The position numbers and the translations under genes were made by a program. Below the pieces are notes generated by a model. The model made no database searches, had not been told where the DNA came from, and saw nothing but the letters and a program-made list of their open reading frames with translations. From the NCBI GenBank assembly GCA_051453625.1, contig JBOZIK010000001.1, positions 6,155,517 through 6,219,259 on the forward strand: a stretch of 63,743 bases of DNA, read 5' to 3'. Source of the stretch: Welwitschia mirabilis. Its lineage: Eukaryota. Positions 1,201 through 62,531 of the stretch are shown one piece after another (position 1 is the first letter of the stretch; every line of letters begins with the position of its first letter).

Positions 1201-2733
1201 CACATATGCCATTTCTAGGCTTACATTAGGGTTAAAACCAATCTCAGGGTTAAAACCCTAAAATAATATTGACACCTTATATTTAATAACCCCATAAAGT
1301 AAATAACATATGAGACAGTTTACAGCCCACTTTCAAACATAAAAGTGAATAGAGGAATGAAATAAAGAAGAAGATTGAAAAATATTCTTACATATTATTG
1401 TTTATGCTTTTTATTCATACATCTGGAATCAAATCTTGAAAATCTAGTTCAGATACTCTGCACATTCACAAAGATGTTAGCATTTCGTTTGATAGACGCT
1501 GCACTATGAGATGCCTATTACTTAATTGTTTACAGCCTTCCCTTACTACACACTTCATATGCCAACTCATACTCTTCTTTCACACACTTGCAACATAACA
1601 ATACATATGGAAACAACACCATCCATTGCTTGTAAGTTGTGCCAACGTTGATTTCACTACCAATATTTTAACCGTTGCCTTTGGTGGATCTGTAAATGGT
1701 CTGCAATCATTTAATGCTTTGGAAGAGTAGCAAGATTAACAGCCCCCCAACAACATCGTTAAGATAAATACATTAAGCAAAACAGAAAACAAAAAAGGAG
1801 CACAATAATTTAATGTGATTTGGCATTTTGATGCATACTGCCATGAGAAAACAGAGACATCCAGTCTTTCTTTAATAGCAGAAGATCAATCATAGGACTC
1901 GAATGTCCTTAGGCAAGCACAAGATGTTTTGCTAAATAATGAGTCTTCCATGCAAGAAAATGCTTTGAAGATGCAAAATGTAGACAGTAGCTGCATGCAT
2001 CATTTTTGAGTAGAATCATATCCTTAAGGGCTGGATGCAACCTGAACCAAGAGAGATCGACACTAGTACGTGAGATATCTGACCTCTAAGCAAAATGATA
2101 CATAACACTTTTTTGCTTAACATCTTCATTGTGCATCCAACTCAATTGTCTATTCATGCTGAGACGCATTCTATCACTGATTCATGCATGCCACTGACAG
2201 CTTGTCACATGCATGTCAATACGAATCCTCCAAAAGAGAGACCAAAATGTGTGAGTTTTGTTCTATTTCTTGAACGACGACTTGACCTCTCCACATGTGA
2301 TGCCAAAGTTTTATGTTCCAAAATATAACATGGAAATGATAAAAAAAGAAAAGAGGATATGGCTTCACACTTCAACAGTAAGAATTACGCAGTGCACTAA
2401 ATGGTTTTAAAGCCATTAAATCAATCATTATCTGAGAGGCTTGTAAGTCGTAATTTGTAAACTTCTACTTTTTGTTTTTTGGCCAAAAGTTGTCTTTTGC
2501 AACTGTTATACTATCTTTCTCAAAATGTTACAATACACATATTTACTTAAATTAACAGAGACTTGAGCCTTATTTCAAACATAATTTGATTTGAGTCTAC
2601 ACAGAATTTGACAATATAACTTAGAGTATGTTTTTTTAATGCAAGTGGCTTTCAAAACGACTATTTTTCATAGTCATCTCATCCATATTTATTGACATTA
2701 TATCTGATGTTGTATTTTCTTTTCTTTGCTCAG

Positions 2734-2786
2734 CTATTTTATAAAACTTCTTCTTGATAAAAAGTATGACCTACAATATCGGGTTA
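2734..2786 (+). pseudogene. BYSL: Bystin exon, upstream copy A (cut off by assembly gap)
   Basis: Intact cAG acceptor (2731-2733). Reads [17 protein letters not shown]; three substitutions vs copy B, two non-synonymous (A>D, P>Q). Runs into the N gap at 2787, so functional status is unresolved. Confidence 0.7.
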
Positions 2787-2886: not shown

Positions 2887-3196
2887 TAGAGATGGGACAT
2901 GTGTCAAGAGAGGGATGATACCCTCTTTAGGGTTTTGGCTTGTAACCCTAATTGGTTATAACCCTTGGGCTATTTAATGGTGGTGTGAAGGTTGTTTGTG
3001 AGATAGAGAATCGATAGAGCTCTGTAAGGCGTTTTTGTCTGAAGCCTGTTCTTGGCTTGTACTCTTTAAGAAGATAATAGAGCTCTGCACTGCTTTCCTG
3101 TGGTTTTTCCCCTCATTGGGGTTTTCCACGTAAATGTGTCTGCATGTTCTCTTTCTACATTGGTTACTAGCTTTGCTGTTATGTATTTTCATAACA
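2887..3196 (+). mobile_element. 3' part of a Copia-like LTR at the left edge of duplicate copy B
   Basis: TATA-like tatttaa, ggttttccacgtaaat motif and terminal ...ataaCA at 3196, after which copy B begins. 5' end lost in the gap. Confidence 0.55.
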
Positions 3197-4751
3197 GGGG
3201 GGAAGATCTGTAGGAAGCAAGTACAAAGCCTATATTAGGTTCTAAAGCATGAAGTAAGCATGCACAAAGCACCTTCAAATGGGTATACCTCAGGTCTGAA
3301 CCCTAAGACAAGGTTTTTTTTATTGCCCAAGAGCCCACAACTTTAAATAGGCAACTCCTTAAGGTGTTTCTAACTTCTATAGCCTAACCACTTATAACAT
3401 GAGCACAACAAGAAGGGCATAAACAAGGATATGAGTGCAATTTCTTCAACAAGCCTGTCCATCCTTTGCAGACTCTTCATTCTGGCATATTTGGTTGTTA
3501 ACAGAGTATCAACACAATCTTTTCGCTTTAAAATATCATTAATCATGATGCTGCAGATGTTGTAGTCTTATTTGACAAGCCTGTCTGTTGTAGGCTTTGC
3601 CTGTAGTCCTCTGGTACATAGGACAAATTTCCTAAAAGTTAGACAGATATTCTGCATGAACGTTGTATTGACTTCCTGCCTTCACCTTGCTTCTTTCATT
3701 CTTCAAGCTTGGTACCCTTTGATACACTATGCTTTGCTTTGAACCAATAAATCCTAGACCCCGTGCTTTGACACCATGTGTTCTAAAAACGTAGCAACAA
3801 AAACAATAAAACAACAGAGAACAAAACAAACAAGCAAGCAGTAAACACTAATATCACAAGATTTATGTGGTTTAGGGTATTTCTACCGCATCTTAATGGA
3901 ATCCAAAGCTCTTATATTGTCAGAGAAAACAAATACAGAGGCTGTCCTTGATAGCTTGCTTTTTTCATTCTTTAAGCTTGGCGAACTGCTACACTATGCT
4001 TTTCCTTTGCACTAACAAACCCTACACCATACTATGAGACCATTTGTTGTAAAAACATAGCAACAATAACAATAAAAGAGCAGAGACCAAAACAAACTAG
4101 CAAGTGGTAAAAACACTGGTTTACATGGTTTGTGATATTTTTACTCTATGTCAAGGGAACAATGCAAAGCTCTTATTTTATCCGAGAAAGGAAAGACACA
4201 AGCTGCCTTTAATAGCTGTATCGGTTATACAATTACCCAGGTGGTGAATCTCATCTTTCCCTTAACACAAACATCTGATTTATAGGCTCACATTAGGGTT
4301 AAAACCAATGTCAGGGTTAAAACCCTAAAATAATATTGACACCTTATATTTAATAACCCCATAAAGTAACTTAAATAACATATGGGACAGCTTACAGCCC
4401 ACTTTCAAACATAAAAGTGAACAGAGGAATAAAATAAAGAAGGAAGATTGAAAAATATGATTTCATATTGTTGTTTATGCTTTTTATTCATACACCTGGA
4501 ATCAAATCTTGAAAATCTGGATTACATACACTGCACATTCACAAAGATGTTAGCATTTCGTTTGATAGGTGCTGCACTGTGAGATGCCTTATTTCAAACT
4601 TAGTTTGATTTGAGTCTGCACAGAATTTGACAATATAACTTGAGTATGTTTTTTTAATGCACGTGGCTTTCAAAATGACTATTTTCCATAGATATCTCAT
4701 CCATTTTTATTGACATTATATCTGATGTTGTATTTTCTTTTCTTTGCTCAA

Positions 4752-4898
4752 CTATTTTATAAAACTTCTTCTTGATAAAAAGTATGCCCTACCATATCGC
4801 GTTATTGATGCTGTTGTTGAACACTTCAAGAGATTTCTGAATGAGACACGCATAATGCCTGTGATATGGCATCAGTCACTTCTCACATTTGTCCAGAG
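4752..4898 (+). CDS. BYSL: Bystin (BYSL/ENP1) internal exon, downstream copy B
   Basis: Translates (S)[49 protein letters not shown], the conserved bystin C-terminal block. GT donor at 4899. The acceptor reads ...ctcAA (4750-4751), not AG. Upstream exons lie outside the window. Confidence 0.93.
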
Positions 4899-5092
4899 GT
4901 ACAGCTTAACTATAACTGTTTCTGGTTGTGACCATCACATGTCGCTATGTTAACCGGAAGTCATCATTTCCTATAATAAAATACCTGGAAGGCCAAAACC
5001 ATATATGAGCAGGATTCATTCATTCTGAATATAGTATTGCATGTATGCATGAAATAAATCTTACAGAAGGTTTTTGATTTTGAAATATGCAG

Positions 5093-5165
5093 GTACAAAA
5101 ATGAGTTGCTGAGGAATCAGAAGGATGACTTGAAGAACTTGGTCAAATATCAAAAGCATTACTTG
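5093..5165 (+). CDS. BYSL: Bystin exon
   Basis: AG at 5091-5092, GTAAG at 5166. In phase with the previous exon: (R)YKNELLRNQKDDLKNLVKYQKHYL. Confidence 0.92.
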
Positions 5166-5248
5166 GTAAGCAATTTCATGATGGTAATTAAAGTATAAAC
5201 TGAGTATTTAAACGAGTTGTTTACGAATGAAATGATTTTCCCATACAG

Positions 5249-5318
5249 GTTACTCCTGAAATTCTGAGAGAATTGGACAGCAGCAGGAATAGAGGCGAGA
5301 AAGAGGTTATGACTGATA
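5249..5318 (+). CDS. BYSL: Bystin penultimate exon
   Basis: AG at 5247-5248. Reads VTPEILRELDSSRNRGEKEVMTD and ends in phase 1 immediately before ATATCCTTT. Confidence 0.9.
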
Positions 5319-7660
5319 ATATCCTTTTTTTGACTATTGAAGAGTTCCTTTTTGTATTTTATGCAGTGTTTGTTTTGCCATCTTTTTTTGTACCCTGAAA
5401 ATCAAATAACCTGGTTCTATAGTGGCCGGCACACACTTCTGGAAAATCCAACCAAAAAATTACATGTTTTTTTCACTGATACTAACTGTATGCTTCGTTC
5501 AGTTCCACTACAATGGTAAATAAAAAATGCTACACTAATCAGATGCCAGTTAGATTCTCCATCCAGCTTCACAGACACTTCAAGTCAAAAATTTACCCAT
5601 TCTATTCTAAAGTTCTAATAAATAACGATCATTATAGGTCTCTGAGGCCGCATAGCTTAAACCACCTTTGGACACTCTTCTCCAACATGATTCGTCATGC
5701 ACTGTTTTCCCTTCAATCTTTTGATTCCCCTGCCAAATCATGCTTCAAAGACATGCCAAAAAACTCTGCTATCTGTATTTTCTCTCTGTGCCCTTCATAA
5801 CTAGCTGTAGCTCTGACATCACTGCTGAGCCTTGGGGTAAGGGAAAGAAATCCCCCGAGAACTGCCTCACATTATTCCAGAATGGCACTGAATTCACAGC
5901 AAAGTAAAAGATGAGGTATCATCTCCTCATCTTTTCCACATAACTGGCACTGGTTGCTATCAATTATGTTAAGTTGATATCATCTTGTTTTTGTATTTAG
6001 TTGCTGCTCATGTACTTTTATTGTTAACAACTGTAGCTGTGGTGTCAATAATCAATTAGTCCAGATGGAATGAATTCTGTCCCTTTGATATTTACATGTA
6101 GTATTACAAACTTTGCCTCATGAATATTGCTCACTCCTTAATCTGTTTTCTAAATGTTGCTAATTAACATGTGGATTGAACGATGCTCTTACATTTTCTA
6201 TGCCTCTCCAACTTGGCGATGCTTGTATAATTCATGGGGTCACCTAAGTGAATCCATGTCACCATACAAGTCTTTCATCATCATAACTTTAATTCATGGG
6301 ACCTTAAAAAAATCCACATCCCTATATCAGTATTTCTTCACCATAGCTTTAACCATGGTTTATGGGGTGTTCATAAGTTATCATCTTAACTTTCCCATTA
6401 AAGCATAATTGAACCCAAGAAGATGTTTTAAACCCCATGCCCTATTCTTCAGCTTTTACATATTGTTTCCTAATTGGTTGTATGAAGACTTTTTCTACCA
6501 TTATCAGCCCATAGAAATCTCTCTTAGTTTTTTCACTATTAGTGATTAGGTGAAACATAACATTGCATTAAATAGAAGGGTGATGCCTGCAACACACTCC
6601 TTATCAGCGGGAGCCTGTCAGCCTGTAATAACTTCATTCCTTGCCAACCTTGTAGTCTATCATTTATTTTACCTAAATCACTGTCCCATCATGTCTTATG
6701 AATTCTTCCACAATTAATTGGAATTCCTAGTTATTTCATTGGGAATTTATCTTTTTGACATGATAGAATATTTGGCATCTACTGCAATCAATCTTCATGC
6801 ATATTAAACTCATATACTTTACTGTTTTGATAATTAATCAACTAGCCTGTCGCTTCACAGAATTCTCCCAATAAATCATGAATATTATTGACATTTTGGC
6901 TTTCAACCTGAAAAAAATAAGAGAGTATCATCTGCAAATTGGACATGGGAAAAATCGTCACATCCATAAGCTGGTTTCCATCCTACAATTTCCATTTCCA
7001 TTCTTGCTTTTCTAACCCAACCATCTGGGCTTTCCATAGCCAAAACAAAAAGGAATGGTTACAATGGACCACCTTGCCTCGGCCCATTGAAACCAGAAAA
7101 GACTTTCGATCTAAAACCATTAACAAGAATTGGATATCTGCATTGAGTGAAGCAAGCCTGTAAATTAGAATGTTTTGGAAACTTTATTCTTTGTTGTACT
7201 AAACTTATGTAATTCCAGTTAATCCTATCATATGTTTTACTAATGTCTAATTTCAAAGCTGTTTGCTTTTTGTTCCAATGTATTGCTGAATGAGTTAATT
7301 CTTGCACCACCATTATCTCATCAGAGATTTGCCTCCCTTTAATAAACCCTGCTTGTTCCTTATAAACCAAGCTTGGAAATAGTGTTTTAATCCTATTAGT
7401 CAAGAATCTGGAGAGAATTTTATAAAGGGATTTTGCTTTTTTCCCTCATTGATATTATCAATTTTTTTGTGCAGATATGTGATTTGTAGATTTCACTTTT
7501 CTGTTGACCATAGTTTCAGAAGTTAATTTGTAATGTAAATTGTGAATGTAAATATTTGGTTGGATAAAACAATGAAGCTCATTTATACTGTAGTTTTCAG
7601 TACATTTTCTGTACCATAGCAATGGCTATATTTCTTTGTAGTTTTCTTTGACCTTTTTAC
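5319..7660 (+). other. U12-type AT-AC intron (2342 bp)
   Basis: 5' site ATATCCTTT at 5319-5327 matches the U12 donor consensus. Branch-like TTCTTTGAC ends about 7652; 3' AC at 7659-7660. Removal restores the bystin frame exactly. Confidence 0.88.
5450..7430 (-). mobile_element. 5'-truncated degenerate L1-type LINE inside the U12 intron
   Basis: RT motifs EQAGFIKGRQISD, LKLDISKTYDRINW, GPRQGGPL (ORF 7059-7403), SHVQFADDTLLF (about 6915-6950), zf-RVT CQLCGKDEEMIPHLLLCC (about 5895-5955). Frameshifts and stops; ends approximate. Confidence 0.9.
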
Positions 7661-7734
7661 TATCCCCAGTTTCTGTTATTAAGCCAATAGAAGAAGACCG
7701 ATGGGATGTTCCAGCAGTGCCTATGGAAGATTGA
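7661..7734 (+). CDS. BYSL: Bystin terminal coding exon
   Basis: Follows AC at 7659-7660. Joining to 5318 gives in-frame (I)SPVSVIKPIEEDRWDVPAVPMED* with TGA at 7732-7734, resembling the plant bystin C-terminus (EEDRFDIPEVPMEED-type). Confidence 0.88.
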
Positions 7735-7776
7735 GTCTTTCTTAGTGCCCCTCCAAATATTATTTTGACTATTGAC

Positions 7777-7850
7777 TATCCCTAGTTTCTGTTCTTAAGG
7801 CAATTGAAGAAGACTGATGGGCCATTCCAGCAGTGCCTATGGAAGATTGA
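7777..7850 (+). pseudogene. Tandem duplicate of the bystin terminal exon (116-bp period)
   Basis: Preceded by AC (7775-7776). Reads SLVSVLKAIEED*WAIPAVPMED* with CGA>TGA at 7815-7817, followed by the same gtcttt flank. Confidence 0.88.
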
Positions 7851-9289
7851 GTCTTTATTACTATCCATCTGACTGTTATTCTTAATTCAGTATTGGGTGT
7901 ACAATTGTTTCAAAGGATCTGTGAAATGATGTATTTCCATGTTTATTATAAACTTTCAAGAAGAGCATTTCAATGGAATGTTGAAATATTTGTCTGAATT
8001 TCTGAAGAATGTTCAGACTTCTTTTTGCAGGAGGCATGCCTTTCACTGAGTATTGTTTCTTTTTTCTATAATGTCAAAACTTGCAAGTGGAATAAATTTG
8101 GTGAACATTTCTATTTTAGTACATGCACCTGAGACTGTGCATTGGCTATTTTGTAATTCTCAGCTTAGAGCAGGATTTTTCCATTTATCTTTATTTATCA
8201 TTATCGTCTGAGGTACCTGGCTTTTGAGACGTAGGGCTGAATCATGAAGAGACATCAAATTGTATGGGGTATTGCATTCAATATATTGGAAGCTTCACAT
8301 ATTAAATAGAGGTTTCTTCACACAGATCCAAACTGCTGTTGTGCTGCCATAATTCTTGTGATTACAGTTTAGCAGCTACTTTGATTCAGTGCCTAAGCCT
8401 TCATAAGGCCTTATTAGTGGCCACTGCCTTAAGATTTTCATCTGTTTTTGACATAAGTTTGAATAATTTGGCTCAGAAAATTTGTCGAGTTTGCTTGTGT
8501 TTTTTGTCCTCTTTAGAATCAGCAAGCTGAATTCAGCTCTATATTTATTTTGGTCAAATGTATGTAATCTGTTAATCATTCAGCATAAATTAATCGTATT
8601 GGCTTCTATGATCCACAACTGAATCATTACCATTGCAGGCATTTAACAACTTATAGTGCAAGTTGGATGATGAGGTCCCTATACTTTGACGTAAACCATC
8701 ATGTTGCTTGTAAATGTTTGCATGGCTGTTTATGTGATTTTGTTCCTTGAGGACTACAATAGTTTTATTGATTCTGAGAGTTGTTCCAAAAAGCAAATGA
8801 AATAGCAAAGCATTACCGTACAAAAATACAAAGTAGACACAAATTTGGTAAGGTCTTACTCTCTTGTGGACACAAATTTAGTGCAAGGCTTTCATTTTCT
8901 TCAGCTGATTCAGATACCAAACAAAGCATGAAAGAACCATCACATGAGAACGAATCTGTGTGTTATTTTCCTTTATTAACCATTTAAAAAAAAACACCAT
9001 GCATCCAATATACTTCTTGGGGAAATTTTATCATTATCCTTATGCATCTGGATTACCACTGTTACCTGATACCAACCTAATTGATCTCTCTAATTTTTAT
9101 TTCTACCTATAAATACAAACGTAACAACTATAAATTGGTTATGCCAAAGACTATCACATAAACCCTCCAAATAAGGTGGTGTCTATGGTGATGTCACAAA
9201 CAGCAATCTCCTAAATGATACATTTTTTTTGTCCAACAATTCAGAAAGATGCAATGCTTTCCAGCATTATGTCTACAATTGTATGTGAA

Positions 9290-23620: not shown

Positions 23621-26600
23621 CCATACTCTCCTCTATCATAAATCATCATACAAGAAAGGGACTAAAAGCTCAGATAATCAGTGAGTAAAGGGAAAACTGC
23701 AGAATAGCGTGTTTAGACTGGGCCACCTTCTTGTTCAAGTCCTTGAATCCCACCACTTTCCTCATTCATATATGTGTGCTTATTTCTTTTAGTTTTCTAT
23801 CCTCTAGATTCAATATTCTAAATATCTCTATAATTAGTAATACACATTAACATTTCTTTTATGCATATTCCTTCAAGTTTAAATACACACATACATATTT
23901 ATTCTTCAAGGCTAAAACAAGTTTAAAGACATATCAATATGTGTAACATAACATGTTCATTTCATTATGAAGAAACAGGAACAATGATTTCAGATTGCAA
24001 TATAAGATGTGTATAAAAGTAACAATGATAAGAATAATGCTCGAAGACAGATGATTTATTTGAAAGTGACGATGATTTTAGATAGCATTTCTAGTTACAC
24101 ATTGTTCCTTAATTTGGAAATAGCATCCTTTCTATAACTTGGTTATAATTGAGTGAACTTCCTAGTCTCCTTGTTATGGCAAGATGAAAATTAGCCTTCT
24201 TCCAAAAAAAAAAAAAAATCCTGGTTATTCCTTTTTTTCTTAATTCATAATAGTCCATATGCTTCAAACTTAGAAAGTATGTCTTAGATCTAAAACATGA
24301 TTTTCTAAAATGATGGTTTACCTAAAATACGATTGCTAAGATGGATAAATAGCTATTGAATTTTCTAGGGTCTAACTACTCTTCATTTTGTCTGTATTCG
24401 TTACACTTCAGAAAATGTAGACATGCAACTTGAAAATATTTTAGTAGGAATAATAGTAAATTCAATGGAGTTTAAGTGAAAATTTGAAAATTTAAAACTA
24501 CCAGGCTTACAAACTAATTAGAGAAGATTTAAATACATCCTTTAATCTTCTAAGCTTTAGCAAGACCTACCCAAGAATCCAAATTTACCCTCCATGATAT
24601 AAAGGATAAGAAAGTTTTTCTAGCATGTTATTTAGAGTTATCTTTAAAGTACTAAAGTATGATATCAAATTATAGTAAATTTTTATGACATTTGGATCAC
24701 TTATTATTTGTTTGATTGATTTAATAAGGTACTCATCAACATTACTTGGATTTGAATAGAGCTTTTGTAAAATCCATTAAATACATGATCATTTCTTTAC
24801 CTACCAAAAGGTGAATTGGACACATTAAAGAGTAGGGGAACGTATGAATTCATTAATTTTAGTGAGATGCATTAGGATTTTATCTATAAGTAGTAGGAAC
24901 AGTCTTTGAGACATTTTGATGAAATATTAGGGGCATTGTAACTTATCATGGATTCCTACACTATTTCACATGAATGAATAAATCCTACATCTTGTATACA
25001 AGAGATTACAATCCACATAAATTGAAATCAATGTAAACTACCTCCAAGAGTTTTATATGCATTTTGGATATATGACATTAAAACAAGTGAAATCAATGTT
25101 ATTTGAAAGGATGGAGAATACTTCTTCATGAATAAATGTTATGTCCCAAGAGCCTGATAATTCTTAAAATGCAATTTATAATTAACAAGGAAATGGTTAT
25201 AAATGTGAATAAAGGACTCTATTAGCGTAGAATGAAAACTATCAACAAGGGAATGGTAAAAAGGTTTATAGGATTCCTCATAGTCTATTATTTCTTTCAA
25301 TTTTCTATTCTTTAGATTCAATATTCTGAATATCTCTATAATTAGTAATACACATATTTGTTGAGAAGAAATGTTTATAATTTTTGATGCCAATGACATA
25401 TGTGATTTTTTATGGTTTTTGGCCTTTTACGTGCCAAACCTAGGAGTTATGTCCTTTGACAAATGATTCATCCCCTTTTATTCAACAGTGACAATTTTAT
25501 ATTAGTGCATGCCCTTAAAAAAGCTTAACAGAGTCAATTAAGAAATGAAACAAACTTTATAAATATAAAACAAAGTAATTCATATGTGTGTGGGGCCTTA
25601 TGACATAATTACATGGTACAAGAGATAGAATGATGTTTAAATTTACCACATGCAAGAAACAAATAAGTGAATGCGTGGAGTTTAGAATGCATACATGATT
25701 TCATATAAGAGCTTTACATTGTCAGTACCACCAATTCAATCCATTTTCTTTATTGTGCACATGATTTGACAATAGTCCTTATATCATATTCATTCATAAG
25801 TATTATGTTTAAGAGTTGCACCATGCATTTGTATAGGGATTCCACTATTTAAATATTATTGCCCTCACACTTGTCATTTGATAATTGTATATGAAACATT
25901 GCATGCTTTAATTAATTCATAATTTTCATTATAAATAATAATATGATGTATCAATTTTGATGAATTATGTAAGATAAATCTAAATGTGGTTGATGGAGTC
26001 CTACCAAATAGTCTAGGCTTTCTCTCTCTTACTTTGACACTTAGGTTACCTGACAGTCTAAAACATAGGTTGGGACTTATAACTATGCCTAGGCAATTGG
26101 GTCTCCTACACATGGGTGTGGGCTTTTTGCCATGTTGAATGTGCACTTGACATTGATTTGGATTTATTAAGAAGAGGCCATGATCATATACCTCATTTAG
26201 AATCTGGATAGGATTTAATCATCAGAACTTCATTAATCAAATGTGCAATCATTGTTTTCATTCTGCTTGTAGCATGTTTGTTTGAATTGCAATGACAAAT
26301 GGGTTAAATAGAAACTTTAATATCCAATAACTCATAAAATGATATCTATCAAATTAAAGTTAGACAATTGAAATACTAAATGATTAATCATTTTNNNNNN
26401 NNNNNNNNNNNNNNNNNNNNNNNNNNNNNNNNNNNNNNNNNNNNNNNNNNNNNNNNNNNNNNNNNNNNNNNNNNNNNNNNNNNNNNNNNNNNNNNNNNNN
26501 NNNNNNNNNNNNNNNNNNNNNNNNNNNNNNNNNNNNNNNNNNNNNNNNNNNNNNNNNNNNNNNNNNNNNNNNNNNNNNNNNNNNNNNNNNNNNNNNNNNN

Positions 26601-28219
26601 NNNNNNNNNNNNNNNNNNNNNNNNNNNNNNNNNNNNNNNNNNNNNNNNNNNNNNNNNNNNNNNNNNNNNNNNNNNNNNNNNNNNNNNNNNNNNNNNNNNN
26701 NNNNNNNNNNNNNNNNNNNNNNNNNNNNNNNNNNNNNNNNNNNNNNNNNNNNNNNNNNNNNNNNNNNNNNNNNNNNNNNNNNNNNNNNNNNNNNNNNNNN
26801 NNNNNNNNNNNNNNNNNNNNNNNNNNNNNNNNNNNNNNNNNNNNNNNNNNNNNNNNGCAACAAAGTCAATAAGATTAAAAGCATTAGGTCATTTTGTTAA
26901 ATAACATATTAGGTCTTAGCAAAGGTTGCCTATATGGCTTAATCAAGGCTTCATTTTTCTAGAAATTGTTAGTTCAAAATTCAATCTATTGTAATTGGTA
27001 TCTTGATATCTTCCTATCAAATGTGGAACTAAAATACTTGTAAATTAGGCGCACCAATTTTGAAATCTCCTTGGTCATAAAGAAAAAATGAATTTGTCTT
27101 CACATTACAACATGGAATGCCTCTTTCATATCTTCATCTCAAACATCTCCTAGTACTATAGTTACATCATCAGATAATAATATTGAAACCATAAAATATC
27201 TTTAAGATTTAAGCCATTGAAAAGCCTAATAGAATTTTANNNNNNNNNNNNNNNNNNNNNNNNNNNNNNNNNNNNNNNNNNNNNNNNNNNNNNNNNNNNN
27301 NNNNNNNNNNNNNNNNNNNNNNNNNNNNNNNNNNNNNNNATCATCAGATAATAATATTTAAACCATAAAATATCTTTAAGATTTAAGCCATTGAAAAGCC
27401 TAATAGAATTTTACTTTTTGTAGAAATGTAGTTTATGTGCCTTACATTTGTGAATAAACTATAAAAGTGAGAAAACAATACTCCTTTTATAATATCCTAC
27501 TCTTTTGACATAACATATAACATGACCCCTTTTATTTTAAGACATTAATAGAAGTGGCAACTTAATCTACAATATCGATCAAATGTTAATAAACCTTATT
27601 GCCATTTAGATTGGTGTTGACATGTAAAAAAGTTAAAACATTAGTAACTTTGGACTAGGGTTACACATTTAGGAATAACATAAGGTAACAAAAATTCAAT
27701 TGAATGGTAGTCAAAGTTTATGTTTATGTTTAAAATTAAAAACTTATGTACTAAATGCAATGTTGGCATGCAAAAAAAGTAAAACATTAGTATATGAAAA
27801 TAACATATGTTTTAAGGACATGAATGAAAATGAGATTTATACCCAAAGTTCAAGACTATCTGAATGGTTTTATATATATAAAAGGACTTCTACCATCATA
27901 TTTTGTTAAGGGGTCTTTCGATTAGACAAACATCCCATATGTTAGACTACCATAGTTGGGTACTTTAACACTATATTACTATTAGACTAGCTAATATTTA
28001 TTCTAGATTCTCACTATTGTTGATGTTCTTCTATGATAGTTTACCTTGTGTTGAGACTATTATAGAAATACATATAATGAAATCATTATATCCATCATCG
28101 TCATCTGATAAATCCATCTATGTGAGGAACAAGGGCTAGATGTTTATGAAGAGGTATTACATATGCAATTACATCTAAAGTTATTCTTATAACTTTAAAA
28201 ATATCATGTACTTATTTGT

Positions 28220-31200
28220 CTAGTATTAATATGTATAGGACATGTAAGAAGTATGAGAATGGTGTAAAGAAGTTCATAGATTTTGCAATTAACAATTCTT
28301 TTAGTTCTCAAGGCATACTTTATGCATGTGTAAAATGCCGCAACCCTTGTTATCGACAATCAAATATAGTTTTTGAGCATCTTTTATGTAAAGGCATGGA
28401 TAATACATACATAAAATAGATTATGCATGGGAAAGAATTAGAATAATGCTATGAAAAATGTAGTAATAAAAATATAATACAAGATGATCCTATTTCCATG
28501 ATGAAATAAGCCTTTATGTTCTTTAATGAGGGGGAGTAATCACATAAAGAAAAAACCATCATGGATTTCTCAAATTCTAATAACTTCAATGGTGATGTAA
28601 AAAAAATGCAAAATATGATAGGTTAATTAAAGAAGGTAAGGAGCCATTGTACCCTAATTGCATAAAATATACAAAGCTTTCTATGATTATCAAATTACTT
28701 ACCATTAAAGGAATGGGTGCATGGTCAAATTCAACATTTTCAATATTGCTTGGTCTCTTTCATGAATTCTTTCTAGAAGGTAATACAATTCCATGTTATT
28801 ATAATCAATTGAAAAGGACACTTCACTCCCTAGGTATGAAATATGATAAATTACATGCATTCCTTAATGACTGTGTGTTATATTAGAAGGAGCATGAGAA
28901 TAAAAATAAATGTGCTCAGTGTGATGCGTCTAGATGGAAATCAAAGAGAGATACCAAGGACAGTAAGCTAGACAAAAGATTACCTATCAAAGTGTTGCAA
29001 TACTTTCCATTAATTCCAAAGCTACAAAGGCTTTATGCATCATTCACAATAGTGGAACATAAGATATAACATTCAAAAAGGTAGATAGACCATGACATAA
29101 TGCAACATCCAACAAATGCTCTATTATAGAAAAATATTAATGAATCATACAATGAATTTAAGCTTGAACCTAGACATGTAAGGCTTGATATTACAACAGA
29201 TGGATTTAATCCTTTTGAGGTGCTTTCCACTTCTTATAGTTGTTGGCAAGTTATGATGGTTGTCTATAACTTACCATCCTGGCTATGCATGACAAGGTCT
29301 TAGGTAATAGTTTCTTTACTCATACCCAGGCCTATAACCAGGAAAAGATATTGATGTGTACCTTCAACCTCTTATTAAAGAATTGAAGCTACTATGGTAT
29401 GAGAAAGTAAAAAAACACTTGATACACTAAAAAAGGAGTTATTTATCAGAAAAGCAGTGCTGTTTTGGACCATAAATGATTTTCCAGCATATGGAAACAT
29501 TTTAGGATGGAGCACGAAGGGGATATTAGCATGTATCATATGTGCTTATAATACCAATTTCCTATGGTTGTCTCATAATAGGAAACATTGTTACCAAGGG
29601 CATAGAAGATTCCTTAATAAAAATCATAGGTATAGACAAATGAATAGACCTTTAAATGGTCAAGTAGAAGAAGAATAAAAAGAAGAACCCACGCCATTAA
29701 GTAGTGAAGAGATTATTTTCCAACTTGATAACATGGATTTTACTTAGGGGAAGTGCATTTTTAAACATTAATAAAAAAAGGCAAAAATGCCAAAACATGG
29801 AAAGCAAGAAAACCATTTAAAGGTCACTCCACCTAGTAAATTTAAAAGATCACAAAATAAATGCAAGAAACCCAATTTGTGCATTCCAGGAGAAGAACAT
29901 AGCAATAGATGAAAAAAGAGATCAATACTATTTAATCTCCCATATTAAAAGGCAATAAAAGTTTATAAAATAATTTAACAATAAATTATTTTACTTTCTT
30001 ATGATTTCATTTAATAACTTTTTTATTTCTAACATGTACACAAAAACATGATATTCAACACAATTTGGATGTTATGCATATTGAAAGAAATATCTCTAAT
30101 AGCTTGGTAAGAAAAATCTTTAACATTAAATAAAAATCAAAGGATAAGCTTGAAGCATTACTTGATCTAAAAGAGCTAGGTCTCAGAGATGAACTTTCAC
30201 CTATTATGATGAGCAATGGTAAAAAGACATTCCTTGCACCTGCTAGTTTTGTGATGTTAGTAAGAAAAAAGAATTCTTTTCTTAATATGTTATCAGAATT
30301 GAAACTTCCAGAGGGGCATGCATCAAATATTCATAGATGTATCCTATAAAAAGAACATAGACTTTCTATCTTAAGAGTTATGACTACCATGTCCTTTTGC
30401 AACTTATTCTTCCCATTGCTTTTCATTACTTGCTTCCATGTAAGGTGCGTCCATTAATAATTCAAATGTTTTTATTATTCAAGGAGATTTATCATAAGGA
30501 AATTAATATAAAAATCTTGGGAGAACTAAAATTAAGAATTTCTATCATACTTTGTGATCTTGAGAGAATATTTCCTCTAACTTTCTTTGATATCATGATG
30601 TATTTACCTATTCATTTGGCAAGGGAGGTCAGGTTTTGTAGACCCGTGCAATATTGATAGATGTATCCTATAGAAAGGTAATAAACATATTTATTTTTTC
30701 CCCCATAAATTTATATTGTTAATAATTATGAACTAACTATGAAGTTTTAACATGTCTACTATTTAGGTTCTTGAAAGTTTTAAAGGGGTATGTCAATGTT
30801 GCGATCCCAAATTGTCATGTTTTAATGGTGTAATTGGAGATGTTTTACAAGCAATAGGATCTCAATTCAATCATTTTCAGGCATTTTATCATGAACTGAT
30901 CCAACAATCTAATTATGACATTAATGCCATATTTTCATCTAGAAAATCAAGAATTCAAACAAGGAATAAAGTGGAGGAAAAAGTGGAGGAGAAGACCAAA
31001 AAAATTATTGTCTTCCCCTTTATCATTCCCAAGACAGCGGGCATGACAACTCGAAGGAGGCTAGCTTAGGCTGACTTGGTGAGGTTGACGTGGCTTGCTG
31101 ACATGGTTGTCATGGTGCATGTCATCCCCATGACACTAGAGATAAGCCATTTATTTGTGAATTCAAATACCAACTGGATTTTGACATGGCTGGCTATGAT

Positions 31201-33180
31201 TGGAAGATGAAGGAGTGTCATGTCCATTGTCATCCCCACAATGACGATAATACAATAGTTTCATAACTTCTTCTTAACCGAGTCAATTAAGGTTTAGTTT
31301 ATGCTTAATGATGCCCCTTCCCCTGTACTAACCTCCCTGACCTGTAACCACCCTAGGAAAGCTATAAAAACCTCCATTTAGCATCATTTAGACATCTTTT
31401 TAGCATTAAAGGATTGGTGACAAAAGCATCTAAGGAGTCAAGGGTCTGTTTCAGCATAGGAGAGATTGTTCTTGGTGATTAGGCTATGGTTCTAACATTG
31501 AGGAGTCACTACCTTGCTGAGGTGATTGTAAGACATTCCATTGATTTAATAAAATGTCTTTATTCTTCTATTCTTATAATGTCTCTTATGATTTGTGTTA
31601 AAGTTGGATTAATACTATTTCTTAGATGAATTCCAAATTAGACACAAGTCATATGGGCTGAGTTGGGTGGCAACAACTCAGAAATTTGGTTATCATAGGC
31701 TTGCATTTCATTTCTCTTTCATAATTTGCATTGTACGATTAGAATATTTGCATTATCAATTTCCTTTTTGCATGACAAAAACACAAAATTGATTTAAACA
31801 TTTGATTGTAATTCAAGTTATATTCTTTCTTATTTATGTGCTTGATTAGATCGTTGCCTTATGCTCTCCAGATTACGATATTCATTGCTTAATTCACCCT
31901 ATACTAACCCTAATTGCAATTTACTTGTTTTAAGAATTGATTACTTTTGAAGTGTAAATTTAGGACACCAATAGTGAAAAAAAAAAAAAGAACAAAATAA
32001 AGGAATGCATTTCAGAAGCTTTTATTATAGAAGAAGCATTAATTTTTTGTAGTAAGTACATGATAAATATCGATACATTAAAAAATTGATTATAATGCAA
32101 TAAAGTTCTCAACAATGACTTCATTGAATCATCTATATATCCAAAAGGAAGATTATTAGGTGCAACAAATAGAATTCTATCGAGTGAAATAGAAAATGAA
32201 CAGGCACATAGATATGTGTTGTTTAATACCTCATGCATTGAATCATATGTGAAGTAAGTCAATCAGGATTTCATTATTTTATTGTTATTATATACATTCT
32301 TAATTTTATTTTTGGATAATCAACATCTACAAGAAATTCGTAGAGGCTTTTCATGAATGACAAAGTATAGAGATCGTTGTACTACTTGGTTTGAAGAACA
32401 TGTAATGTATGATACATTCTATATAAAGTTATTAATGGCTATGCAATTATGATGTCTAAAATATGTATACATATAAATTTTTTGATGTTTTAGATTTACA
32501 TGTTAAGGGAAAAAGCAATGCTTAATGAAGAATAAGAAAAAGAAGTAAAATGGTTGTCACATTGTCCAAGTAGGCATGCATAAAGGTACAAGGAATACCT
32601 AATTAATGGGTATTAGATTTCATGTAAAGGAGAGAAATGCAGAGTTAACATGTTAAAATAGTGGAGTTTCTATTATTACAAATACTCCATGTATATCAAC
32701 TGTAAAGTATAACAATCTCATAAGTAATTATGTAAAATATTATGGTATCTTGAAAGATATAGTCATATTAGATTATAGTTTTATATTTAATGTTGTAATC
32801 TTAAATGTGAATGGTTTGATGTTTTTCAATAAGCTGACATCAAGAAGAATGAGTATGATTTCATGCTTATTAACACAAGTAAATATGTCAGGGCTGATTA
32901 TGAATGAGATGAACCATTCATATTAGCTAGTCAAGCATCACATGTTTTCTATGTAAGGAACATTGAGAATCCTTCATAAAGTATTGTAGCAACATTTAAT
33001 CCAAGATATATTTATGATGAGAGTGAAAATATAGAATTTTCTAAAGTGGAAGAGGATAGGGAAGATAATTTGACATCCTTACACCATAGTTACCTCCTTG
33101 ATAAGGAGAATGATGCTAAAGTTAAAAACATAAAGTGGACTTATATAGATTCAGATGCTATTATGGTTGATGCTTGGAAT
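28220..33180 (+). pseudogene. CACTA TnpD/Tnp2 transposase pseudogene (multi-exon)
   Basis: CVKCRN, DGFNPF, IDVYLQPLIKELKLLW, WTINDFPAYGNILGWSTKG, HNLDVMHIERN, LPEGHASNI, FFDIMMYLPIHLAREV, MYPIER, YYGILKDI, DEPFILASQASHVFYV. Stops and frameshifts; split by a solo LTR at 30797. Confidence 0.93.
30797..31973 (+). mobile_element. Solo LTR (Gypsy/Athila-like family) inserted in a transposase exon
   Basis: Begins TGTTG, ends CAATA (CAACA with one change). TSD gtcaa (30792-30796) / gtgaa (31974-31978). Transposase reads LKGYV before and ECISEAFIIEEALIFCSKY after. Confidence 0.8.
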
Positions 33181-57700: not shown

Positions 57701-59207
57701 ACTCTATATATGTCTAGTGTTTATGTTTGCTCTTGCACTTTATACCATGTTATACTTCTCAACATTACATTAGTCATTTCTTTAAAGACAAATTGGATTT
57801 TAACAAAAGCAATAAAAGCAATGACATTTTATTAATAGATGTTTTTGATTCATATATATTTTTTACATAAAGAACATTGAGTCACTTTTAAATTGTGAAT
57901 TTTTACATTTGTTGTATACTATTTGTGAAGTTAGTAATATTGTAAACACAAACATTATAGATAGTATGAATATGATCCAACCTAATATATTTTTTTTGCT
58001 TATTTTTTCCTTGATAACATTAACCAATGTGCATTGGGGAACTGCATCGATAGCATAGAATTTAGCCAAAATCCTTTCATTTTCCTCTCAATTTCCTATA
58101 TTTATCATATCATCACAAAATTTTAGGATATTCACTACAATAATAAAGACATATATCATACTTTTCATGTTAGTCATGTTATCCTAGGAAATTTTGTAGG
58201 TGAGTCAAATCCATCTGACATGGCCAAAAGGTATAAATGCAATGGAATATTATTAAGAATTATTCTATTCTTCTAAAATAAATTAGTAGTCATACAATAA
58301 TGCTATCAATTACTTTAATGTTAGCATGATTCCTAGCTTTAAGCTTATTAACATCATCTTTGTTTCTATATGAATGTACTTTATTTATAACTATATTAAA
58401 CACCTTTCTTGCTAAGGCTAAATCATCCTCATCAGGCCTTCAGAATGAGTAAAATGTTATAAAGCCATAAATAAACATAAAATTATGAAATTATATTAGA
58501 GAATAATATCAATTTAATACCTTTCTCCTTGCATTTCCTTTTTTTCTTTGTGAGCCTTATTTATAATCTTATTTATAAAAGACTCATCCACAAACCATGA
58601 TCAAACCACAATTAAAACTAAATTAAATTAAAACAAATAAATCCATGGTGGTGAACATAAAAAAAAACCAATGTTACATACAAGTATTTGTAATATCATT
58701 TAGGGATAAATTATTTGATGCATAACTACTAGAATCTAAGCTATGATTGTGAGCTTAATATTGGGTTAGAATTTGTATAATGTCATGTGCCTTTAGAATG
58801 TTACATTGACACTTTATATTATGTAACATAAAGATATGTCTGACATGGTTCAAGTTTCTTGAAAACTTTTTGGAAAAATATGGTATGAATAAGATTATAC
58901 ACATGCAATATTCTAGCATCCATCAAACAAAATGCTAGCATCTTTATGAATGTTCATAGTATCTAATCTAGATTTTCAAGATTTGATTCTAGGTGTATGA
59001 AGAACAAATGTTCATAATTACACATAATCATGTTTCACGATATTTCAAGTTCTAAACAATGTATAGGCTTTTGCTTAGGCTTTTGAAAAGCACAATAATA
59101 CTATAGAAGCCTATACAAAAGAAAGAAGAAAGAAAAAAAGGTAATCTTTGATTTTTTAATGCATGAAACCTCCATAAGATTAATGTTTTGAAATGACTTT
59201 GATTAAT

Positions 59208-62200
59208 GCCAAGGCATGTATAAGAAACACAGTTCAAACCTCCAATATCTAAAAATCATTCGATGAGACAATTAAAATTCAAAAATAATATGGATAGTAA
59301 TACCTTGTCATTTTGTTATTGCTGCTTCTTAGTTTTTCTGTGTCTTTTCTTTTTATGTTTATCAAATTGTGAATCTAATTTTTGCTTAATTTTAACTTGG
59401 TATTTGTCTAACCTTTCCATCTGCTTTTTCTTTTCCTTATTTGACCCTAAATCATGTTTAATTAATGTGTCCTTTGGATCCATTACTTAAAAACCTTCTA
59501 AAACACCATAAACATTACATAAATATATATACTGAAATAATAAATTCACTAAATATCTAGCTTTCAAAATGATAGCATTAGAAAAAGATAAAAATGGTTG
59601 TTACAAGTTTAAGGATTGAAAAAAATAAAAAACTAAAATTAACTAGAAAAAGTTAAAATGCTAGAACTAATATAAATACACTTATTACTGTATTTGATGA
59701 AACACTACTAAAAATAGCATAAAATTTCCACATTTATTAAGATTACTATACCTTAGGGACTAAAGAGTTTTATGACACTATGTATAGAAAGAGGTGATTT
59801 GATGCTTATGAATATCTAGTTGATATGATTATAGCTATCATTTGTGACCATGAGATATCTATTCTCTTGAGCTAAATTATTATTGTTACTAATTTAGGTG
59901 GAATTAGGAGTATGCACATCCACTCAACTAATGGTATAGAGAAGTGTGCTTATGGTGTAGCATAGGACATACTAGCTGATATGACTAATGATAGGTAAGG
60001 AGTTTTAATGATACATTTATCATTTACCTATTGGATTATTCATAGAGGATTGATCCACAACATCAACCCTTCCTTCCATGATAGTTATGTCATGGTCACT
60101 CATATTTAGATGTTAGTAGTATTCAGATAGGGGGAGCAAATGGTTTACTGACCTTAATTGAGAGGATACTTAGGAGCATGATTGAGGCTTGACAATTACA
60201 GACTTTAGGATATCCTTGCCTTCTCTTAGCTGTGTCTAAATGCATTGATATACCTAAGCCTATAAGAAAGAAAAAACTCATGCATCTTCAGACTTTAGCT
60301 TGTTACCTATAAAACATGTGCATTCAGATTTTAGAAGAGGTAGAGAGACCTTAGGTATAGAGACATACGATTGGTATCACCCTTGAGCAGATTCAGGCTC
60401 TCCTAGTAGACATTGAAAAGAGAATTAGAGCGATAGTACATTAAATTTTTACCATGCTTGAGTAGAGGATATCTAGAGTTGATAGAAAAGTTTAGCACAC
60501 CTAAGAGTAGTTGACTGATATGTGTCAACACATATTACGCATTGAGCACAGTGTAATACTTAACCTTCCAGAGGTAGTCAGAGTAAAGGAAGATGAGATA
60601 ACATACTCCATTATGACATCACTTAATCCTTATTTTCTTGTAGATCCTGAGCATCCTCCTTCTTCTATACCTGTAGCTAAGCCTATTGTGCATTAAGAAT
60701 TCACTTTGGCACTATGAAGGGAGTGATTTATTATGTTGTATTATGTATCTTTCCTCTATATATTGTATTAAAACTTATTATTTTATATATAGACATGATT
60801 TTTAAGCATTATCATTATGTCCATATTTTATTTTTGAAATATTATTGCACTCAACTAGGTAGCTTGATTAAAATGTTAGAAGAAAATAAGTTACTCTTAA
60901 CCTATTTTTCAATTCATAATTTAAAAACATGGGAAGAAGACTAAAATTTGAATAATTAACTTTAAGAACATAAAATTAAAAATTCAAATAAACCATAATA
61001 TCATTAAAAAATTCTAGTAAATAAAAAACTAGTAAGCATTAAAACCAAGTCATACATGCCTTTTCTCACTAATAGACTCAACATGGGTGGTTTATATGAT
61101 CTAGTTCCTGACATGGTAAATGCACCAATAATGCATAACCTAACTCATACATGATGCACCACATTTTGAAACACCATATAGGGGTACATTGAAGTAACAC
61201 AACATAATCACCTGGTTGTATCAATGGCATTTATGCAACCTTTATAAGATATGTAAGGTGGACTATTTCCTTACTAGCTCTTTACTTAATTCATGTACAA
61301 AGGAGTCACTGAACATCTCTAATTTGCCTTATTAGAGTTCACAATATTGTTGTCTTTTTTGCATCTCTTGTAGCGCAGGTAAGGTTTTATAACTTACTTC
61401 TTTCCTCATTTTAACTCTGTTGTTATTCCTTTCTGCATTCTATAATTTTCCTTGTAACTTCTGAAAATTTTTTTATCTTTATCTTTAATAAAAATAATGT
61501 TGTGATCATTTATAATATTGAAAATATCTGTCATCTAATAATGTTAACGAATTTTTATAAGATACTAAATCTCTTTTACTCTATTGATATGTTGTTAAAC
61601 CTAAAGCTACCAAATAATGTTTGGGTAGTAGCTTAGAGGGTTATATGTAGTTTTTAATTTATCTAGTCATGTCTCTCATCACTTAAAATTTAAATGTAAT
61701 TACTAGTTCATTTCACTTTCTAATGCTTACATGGAAACCTCTAAGATTATGTTCCTTGTTTTACTTTATCTCATGCAAACTTAATGGTTTGATAGTAATA
61801 TGACAATCATACTTAATTAGCATACAACATACTTTTGCATGTACAAGTGAATCCAATTCTTACTAGTTTTTTATTTACTAGATTTTTTTTAAATGATTTT
61901 ATGGTTTATTTGAATCTGCAAGTATATGTTCTTAAAGCTAATTATTTATCTTTTAGGTTTCTCCTCATGTTCTTCAATTATGAATTAGAAAACAAATCAA
62001 GAGAGACTTGTTTTCTTCTAACTTTTTAATAAAGCTACCTAGTAGATCTTGGAAATGGACTATAAAAATTTTGTGCTATTTTCCATTAGTGTTCCATCAA
62101 ATATATTATTATTAAGTTTATCTATGTTAGTTCTAATATTTTAACTTTTTTAAGTTAATTTTAATTTCTCATTTTTTAACCCTCACACTTGTAACATTCA

Positions 62201-62531
62201 TTTTTATCTTCTTTCTAATGCTCTCATTTTGAAAGATAGATATTTAGTGAAATTATTTTTTTAGTATAATTATTTATGTCATGTTTGTGATGTTGTAGAA
62301 GATTTCTAAGTAATCGCTCTAAAGGACACATTTGTTAAACATGATTCACTTGAGTAGGAATTAGATTTACAATTTGATAAACATAGCAAGAAAAGACATG
62401 GGAAACCTAAGAAGTGGAAACAACAAAATGACATGGTATTACTATCGATATTATTTTTGAATTTTAAGTATCTTATGAAATGATTTTTAGATATTAAATA
62501 TTTGAACCATGTTGCTTATATATGTTTTGGT
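59208..62531. repeat. Long interrupted inverted repeat: left arm 59208-59727 plus 60853-61059, right arm 61838-62531
   Basis: Reverse-complement matches such as aattcactaaatatctagctttcaaaatga (about 59543) vs tcattttgaaagatagatatttagtgaa (about 62224) and ctagtaaataaaaaactagtaag (about 61014) vs cttactagttttttatttactag (about 61859). Confidence 0.85.
61060..61300 (-). mobile_element. Possible PIF/Harbinger transposase remnant in the inverted-repeat spacer
   Basis: YKGCINAIDTT (FKGCIGAIDGT-like, about 61215-61247) followed by FQNVV. One short motif only. Confidence 0.35.

Follow-up and report, generated by a model that had tools for sequence, protein, structure and literature searches.

Introduction

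Bystin (ENP1) is an assembly factor of the 40S ribosomal subunit. Introns of the U12 type carry a rigid 5' splice-site motif, (A/G)TATCCTT counted from position +1. The motif is echoed by a remark on GCATCC in one section of Sheth et al. 2006. Among described introns of this type, intron 4 of the land-plant CBP20 gene offers a close comparison with the one that we report here: it is a conserved AT-AC intron of U12 type, it divides the conserved core of the protein from its C-terminal tail, and its length ranges from 76 to 2733 nt between species, according to the sections of PMC5932401 used here. We have analysed a stretch of 63,743 nt of the Welwitschia mirabilis genome (hereafter the window), in which positions 5319-7660 very probably form the last intron of an expressed plant bystin gene, an old AT-AC intron of U12 type, in phase 1, that was enlarged mainly by an antisense and now decayed long interspersed nuclear element (LINE).

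The same sections of PMC5932401 give TTCCTTRAY as the plant branch consensus of U12 introns and mention Arabidopsis U12 introns of up to 3731 nt in U12DB. Taken together with the CBP20 range, these lengths place a U12 intron of 2.3 kb within the range already known in plants. As regards the 3' end, a portion of the review PMC3584512 sets the optimum distance from the branch box at 11-13 nt and describes U12 introns as having no polypyrimidine tract. As for the protein, human BYSL and yeast Enp1, which have been solved in pre-40S particles (e.g. 7mq8, 6g18 and 5wlc), belong to the same family as the product of the window gene.

Results

On the plus strand, window positions 4752-7734 contain the final four coding exons of a plant bystin/ENP1 gene. 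The RNA data, chosen by species label, consisted of two out of six raw RNA-seq runs, from two studies (X9 and X12), and two contig runs (X1 and X2). They were mapped to window positions 2900-8600 at 90% likeness, and joints were listed from 3 reads upwards. Joints are written below as the two exon bases that they bring together. The gene is arranged as follows.

4752..4898, plus strand: bystin coding exon A (PF05291); the preceding exon lies outside the window, and a GT..AG joint leads to exon B
4899..5092, plus strand: GT-AG intron of 194 nt (joint 4898/5093, 25+20 reads in X9 and 30+23 reads in X12)
5093..5165, plus strand: bystin coding exon B (tblastn to P0002 and P0066; bounded by RNA joints)
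5166..5248, plus strand: GT-AG intron of 83 nt (joint 5165/5249, 26+38 reads in X9 and 38+32 reads in X12)
5249..5318, plus strand: bystin coding exon C, ending in phase 1, after the first base of a codon (tblastn, 89% to P0002 residues 412-430; RNA joint at 5318)
5319..7660, plus strand: U12-type AT-AC intron of 2342 nt, 65.2% A+T (RNA joint 5318/7661)
7661..7734, plus strand: last coding exon D, with the conserved acidic tail and the stop codon TGA at 7732-7734 (tblastn to P0002 residues 438-462)

The identity of the gene is clear from several comparisons. The translation of 4726-4899 scored 80.6 bits against the Pfam profile Bystin, PF05291 (cut-off 28.8), over profile positions 199-249 of 292. 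Exon A aligned to human bystin with an E-value of 9e-17 and also to the yeast Enp1 chains of pre-40S structures, and its identity to the best plant bystins is 92% (E<=1e-5 for 1064 of 1071 candidate proteins). Over the last 120 residues the closest relatives are gymnosperm-type sequences, P0002 at 80.6% identity and Cryptomeria at 75.6%. The four exons are all open. No bystin exon upstream of residue ~338 was detected in the window when two full-length gymnosperm-type bystins, P0002 and P0066, were used in tblastn, and the window holds 14 runs of N. Loose-ended reads before 4752 (62 of them in X9, 50 in X12) continue into the final part of the bystin exon that precedes exon A; transcription and splicing therefore extend over the bystin gene as a whole. 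Its 3' untranslated region extends to about 8250-8485, as judged from read depth and contig pieces.

We then turned to the last intron. RNA reads bring 5318 and 7661 together, skipping 2342 bases that begin with AT and end with AC, and the position of the joint has zero ambiguity. This joint was read 45 times in X9 (20+25 reads, 38 starts) and 41 times in X12 (21+20 reads, 35 starts), and the joined form is also present in the contigs of X1 and X2. For comparison, the joints 4898/5093 and 5165/5249 gave 45 and 64 reads in X9 versus 53 and 70 reads in X12. A sequence-only reading of the same DNA had proposed that bystin contains a minor-spliceosome AT-AC intron with exactly these ends. Junction reads from 5318 to 7661, on which it had staked the proposal, are indeed found in both raw runs. 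Transcripts with a GT-AG junction, from a donor at 5306 or to the AG at 7668-7669, and no reads of the AT-AC joint would have spoken for a different intron; no GT-AG joint across the last intron reached the listing threshold of 3 reads in X9 or X12. Two such joints were considered as candidates and rejected. The first, 5305/7670, shifts the frame. The second, 5305/7642, which the earlier reading had not mentioned, stays in frame and adds seven hydrophobic residues unlike those of any orthologue. Neither has listed reads.

Joining 5318 to 7661 preserves the reading frame and leads into the acidic tail conserved in plants, up to the TGA at 7732-7734, and the exact restoration of the frame that had been read from the letters is thus borne out. 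The same reading had placed the stop met by read-through at the TGA of 5338-5340; this triplet is out of frame, and the in-frame stop is at 5396-5398. The U12 intron lies between the last part of the bystin domain and a C-terminal tail that is short, conserved and acidic.

The splice signals were examined next.

5319..5327, plus strand: U12-type 5' splice site ATATCCTTT (a matching ATATCCTT in 14 of 15 genomic contigs from other plants)
7644..7652, plus strand: branch-site box TTCTTTGAC, with the candidate branch A at 7651 (8 of the 9 letters of the plant consensus TTCCTTRAY)
7659..7660, plus strand: AC, the intron's 3' terminus (RNA joint ends)

The intron thus combines AT...AC termini proven by RNA, the U12 5' motif, a branch box with a spacing at the short edge, the lack of a pyrimidine tract and a type conserved in other plants. 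The candidate branch A lies 9 nt before the last intron base, where a branch-like site had been noticed from the letters, and the same count gives 10-14 nt in other plants. Only 8 nt separate the branch box from the junction, which leaves no pyrimidine tract. By analogy with characterised U12 introns, ATATCCTTT would be recognised by U11 and U6atac, and the branch box by the U12 snRNA.

Termini of the AT-AC kind do not by themselves name the spliceosome. The passages of Sheth et al. 2006 used here describe U2-type AT-AC introns ('type II'), which exist in animals, and the intron of the window might likewise be excised by the major (U2) spliceosome. The 5' sites of that class, however, are U2-like apart from the first base, whereas here the U12 motif occupies positions +1 to +9, and next to the 3' end stands a U12 branch box, with no room for a pyrimidine tract. 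Moreover, the U12 motifs are kept in 14 of the 15 other plant loci, and the same passages count 27 U12-type and 0 U2-type AT-AC introns in Arabidopsis. Excision by the major spliceosome is therefore extremely unlikely, and we assign the intron to the U12 type. A second U12 intron, before exon A, was also considered and rejected: a pyrimidine tract lies upstream of 4752, and no branch box with an A is found there.

Is this intron peculiar to Welwitschia? Six plant bystin C-termini were aligned and used to scan metagenome contigs, which yielded 24 loci, 15 of them genomic-looking, with exons separated by introns. Of these 15 contigs, 14 carry a ATATCCTT donor in phase 1 at the codon position that is homologous to that of 5318; they comprise legume-like and poplar-like contigs, of two types each, and four that are grass-like. 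All but one of the 14 reach the last exon (L017 ends earlier), and each of these 13 shows a TCCTTGAC, TCCTTAAC or TTCTTAAC box with its branch A 10-14 nt before an in-frame AC. The comparison of intron position and type between bystin orthologues, which the sequence-only reading had suggested as a further check, thus gave the same type of donor at the same site in nearly every contig. The AT-AC bystin intron is common to Welwitschia mirabilis, monocots and dicots. It is probably old: three lineages of flowering plants have an intron of this type at the corresponding codon position.

Poplar allows a detailed comparison of the last bystin intron (poplar-like contigs L010-L015; public Populus models P0023, P0041 and P0059). 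Gene, codon position, phase, ATATCCTT donor and AC end are the same, and the AT-AC-spliced poplar-like loci give exactly the C-termini of the three public models. The two introns differ in length (758-780 nt in Populus versus 2342 nt here), in the distance of the branch A from the 3' end (12 nt versus 9 nt) and in the branch box, which is a perfect TCCTTGAC in Populus and TCTTTGAC here. The last introns of the grass-like contigs (L016 and L018-L020; 136-195 nt) and of the legume-like contigs (L004, L005 and L024; 555-723 nt) also share the position, the phase and the AT-AC U12 signals, and the spliced tail of the grass-like L019 is found again in the transcript-like contig L003. The counterparts in flowering plants therefore measure 136-780 nt, against 2342 nt in Welwitschia.

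The fifteenth locus, L022, is fern-like, with 90% identity to the bystins of Ceratopteris and Adiantum. At the same codon position and in the same phase, a model based on protein similarity places a 175-nt GT..AG intron with the donor GTATAC (L022:659-833). This state possibly results from a U12-to-U2 conversion, or it may be ancestral. In this respect bystin differs from CBP20, whose intron 4 is of U12 type from bryophytes to angiosperms according to the cited part of PMC5932401, whereas the one fern-like bystin contig examined has GT..AG ends.

The content of the longer Welwitschia intron is as follows.

6473..7430, minus strand: decayed, 5'-truncated LINE reverse-transcriptase fragment, antisense to the gene (tblastn and Pfam RVT_1)
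5896..6434, minus strand: possible further LINE remnants, a region following the reverse transcriptase with a zinc-finger-like motif (weak, colinear matches)

With four ORF2-like proteins of plant LINEs as queries, tblastn gave a match on the minus strand over ~0.96 kb, 7430 to 6473, with E-values of about 1e-35. The match covers the reverse-transcriptase domain and ~90 residues beyond it (P0123 residues 280-604, P0130 residues 756-1053), and it is broken across frames, with stops. The Pfam domain RVT_1 was found at 7059-7445 on the same strand (E 7e-13, 49.2 bits against a cut-off of 29.6). Neither zf-RVT nor the endonuclease gave a match at E<=1 in tblastn with the LINE ORF2-like proteins. 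At loose settings, two weak colinear matches appear, one of E 0.9 at 6434-6390 and one of E 32 at 5940-5896, the latter showing the zinc-finger-like spacing C..C...H....C, and Pfam gave no match in the three minus-strand frames over 5896..6434. The LINE therefore accounts for about 1 kb firmly and for ~1.5 kb at most plausibly. The sequence-only reading had assigned ~2 kb of the intron to a reversed LINE RT/zf-RVT fragment: the antisense reverse transcriptase stands, over ~1 kb, while the 2-kb extent does not, and of the zf-RVT part only the weak remnants are left. It thus appears that, in this genome, the intron grew to 2.3 kb mainly through the insertion of an antisense LINE that has since decayed. 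Rfam gave 0 matches at the gathering score over the whole window, and hence no snoRNA or similar element in the intron.

Several points weigh against the reading of 5319-7660 as the spliced U12 intron of the window gene. Every read of the four runs disagrees with the window at three sites, 4800 (G), 5649 (T) and 5796 (T), and the RNA nature of X1 and X2 is a guess. The acceptor of exon A, 4750-4751, is AA in the window (CTCAA/C), although RNA starts exon A at 4752 and a duplicate of this region has CTCAG/C at 2732; the reference copy may carry errors or a defective allele. As regards the signals, the donor 9-mer alone is at chance level (2 in the window versus 2.04 expected), the branch box has one mismatch to TTCCTTRAY, and the branch A spacing of 9 nt is just under the 11-13 nt optimum given in the cited portion of PMC3584512. 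Since the sequenced individuals show the three differences in all reads, the reads represent other alleles of the locus. The placement of the donor is not due to chance, because RNA joins exactly 5318 and 7661 and a donor is present at the equivalent position in 14 of 15 contigs from other plants. The AA acceptor and the three differences would go back either to errors in the assembly, or to a private allele, or to an acceptor that is defective in the reference individual.

A further objection could be built on the duplicated pieces of the gene.

7764..7860, plus strand: pseudo-exon with an in-frame stop, a tandem copy of the last exon and its acceptor region; 87.8% identity to 7647-7744
2567..2786, plus strand: older duplicate that covers the intron end and exon A in its 5' part and breaks off at an N gap; 93.6% identity to 4586-4804

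According to this objection, the bystin copy in the window is a duplicate that is dead, and a functional paralogue located elsewhere supplies the reads; the junction would then be shown for the paralogue only. Several bystin fragments do lie in the window: the two duplicates, and pieces at 57989-59483 (minus strand) and 62346-62450 (plus strand). The AA acceptor of exon A, the difference of all reads at 4800 and the position of the upstream exons outside the window point in the same direction. So does a minority form of the 5318/7661 joint, with G instead of A at 7662, represented by 10 reads in X9 (versus 45), 2 reads in X12 and one contig of X2, which stems from an allele or a close paralogue. 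On the other hand, reads and contigs cover both the exons and the intron and hardly depart from the window, the intron contigs (216-489 nt) matching it with 0-2 differences. Each of the four exons is open, and splicing uses three junctions that fall exactly on the boundaries of the window locus. Finally, the duplicates inside the window reach only 88-94% identity, and at sites where they diverge from the main copy the reads side with the latter. A silent window copy with an active paralogue is thus highly unlikely. A pseudogene, which the AA acceptor at 4750-4751 and the duplicated exon pieces had brought to mind, was likewise rejected as the main reading, the locus being covered by spliced reads. 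We put at roughly 0.93 the probability that an expressed plant bystin/ENP1 gene has its last intron at 5319-7660 and that this intron is of U12 type with AT-AC ends, in phase 1, old, and enlarged mainly by an antisense decayed LINE; the junction, the splice signals, their conservation and the LINE reverse-transcriptase fragment on which this reading draws were all observed.

Discussion

We then asked whether such an intron could have a regulatory significance. Read depth was measured in bins of 191 bases, a width at which the neighbouring short U2 introns are not resolvable. Exon depth is ~70 in both raw runs, a rough estimate from the bins that contain exons. In the intron bins of 5383-6337, outside the firm part of the LINE, depth is 7.5-13.6 in X9 and 3.4-5.6 in X12, and just inside the donor it is 7-8 in both runs. 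The bins of 4237-4618 in the long upstream intron, by contrast, are nearly empty (0 in X9, 0.3-1.5 in X12). The unspliced signal comes from this locus, because the intron contigs differ from the window by only 0-2 positions. By a rough estimate it amounts to 5-19% of exon depth, and the reads are mostly spliced.

The sequence-only reading had gone further and suggested that slow splicing of a U12 intron laden with a transposable element could regulate the output of a ribosome-biogenesis factor. In this scenario, the LINE-enlarged intron is a regulated bottleneck: removed slowly or retained, it limits bystin or gives a protein without the tail, and thereby tunes 40S production. The depth of the intron relative to the exons, the nearly empty upstream intron and the origin of the intron contigs at this very locus agree with it. 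Moreover, according to reviews, splicing of U12 introns is slower by about twofold and may be rate-limiting (passages in PMC3584512 and PMC4615840). Most reads are nevertheless spliced, and the unspliced level equals the one generally reported for U12 introns, which is a higher one according to the portion of PMC3584512 cited above, so that the LINE is not singled out. Furthermore, longer CBP20 U12 introns were spliced better in minigenes, as reported in the sections of PMC5932401 used here. The unspliced level found here thus fits U12 introns in general; it is no demonstration of regulation and does not implicate the LINE. We consider the regulated bottleneck unlikely.

One could imagine a broader version of the same idea, in which the intron has been kept at the boundary between the bystin core and tail since the seed-plant ancestor as a valve. 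Its removal would be slow and prone to retention, and the unspliced polyadenylated RNA, roughly 5-15% in the present data, would either give tail-less bystin or be held back or degraded. As a consequence, the activity of the minor spliceosome would set the capacity for 40S assembly, and the LINE expansion would have strengthened the valve. This scenario is very unlikely. The regulatory idea is generic to U12 introns and speculative, and the locus opens no new biological question. What it adds is a well-documented U12 intron that is conserved across seed plants and whose length varies about 17-fold.

The main use of the result is in annotation: a single AT-AC intron decides whether plant bystin models receive the conserved acidic tail. 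Among 205 bystin-like public plant proteins inspected, 152 have the exon-C motif. The conserved tail is present in 108 of these. Another 22, about one in seven of the 152, run through the ATATCCTT donor, which is seen as x-I-L after the exon end (e.g. P0216, P0018, P0025 and P0172), and lose the tail. The remaining 22 are other cases, of which roughly 13 look mis-spliced, with non-conserved tails, on a reading of the list and the rest have variant but genuine tails. The earlier expectation that gene finders would mis-annotate the C-terminus of bystin therefore holds for a share of the public models. Many others already splice the AT-AC intron correctly, and in this sense the finding is implicit in public annotation and the intron is an ordinary feature. 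In individual cases, P0173 has the tail in the wrong frame, and other models use forced GT-AG joins.

As for the literature, full-text and supplement searches found no paper that names a U12 intron in bystin/ENP1; the catalogues U12DB, IAOD and MIDB were not covered by these searches and may list the intron. AT1G31660 (the ENP1 gene of Arabidopsis), BYSL and bystin gave 0 matches in the searched supplementary files of PMC6717393, PMC11347168, PMC6310983, PMC2831892 and PMC5853960, and a supplement of PMC5716242 gave one match, in a table of gene identifiers without intron type. PMC6717393 is a minor-intron catalogue paper, and the lack of BYSL in its searched supplements is weak evidence that the human bystin gene has no minor intron.

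Further observations concern the duplicated pieces and the surroundings of the gene. The pseudo-exon at 7764-7860 sits ~30 bases past the stop codon, and the raised read depth in the bin 7675-7865 is probably due to it. The older duplicate at 2567-2786 retains an AG acceptor and has two non-conservative changes in the invariant KKYALPYRV motif. Together with 190-1519 it forms the first copy of a tandem duplication within the long upstream intron; the second copy consists of 3256-4593 (89.7% identity to 190-1519) and 4586-4804, and the first has ~1 kb extra. The distant bystin-like pieces correspond to the N-terminal third of plant bystins, with only ~40% identity. Those of 57989-59483 are colinear with gaps and that of 62346-62450 holds a stop, and they look like decayed partial gene copies. 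Lastly, window positions 2900-3281 have a very high depth in the four runs (a word depth of 24,787-32,837 in X1 and about 100-128 reads in X9), with hundreds of loose ends clustered at 3098-3101 and 3135. The element transcribed there is short, abundant and present in multiple copies, and it lies beside the N gap.

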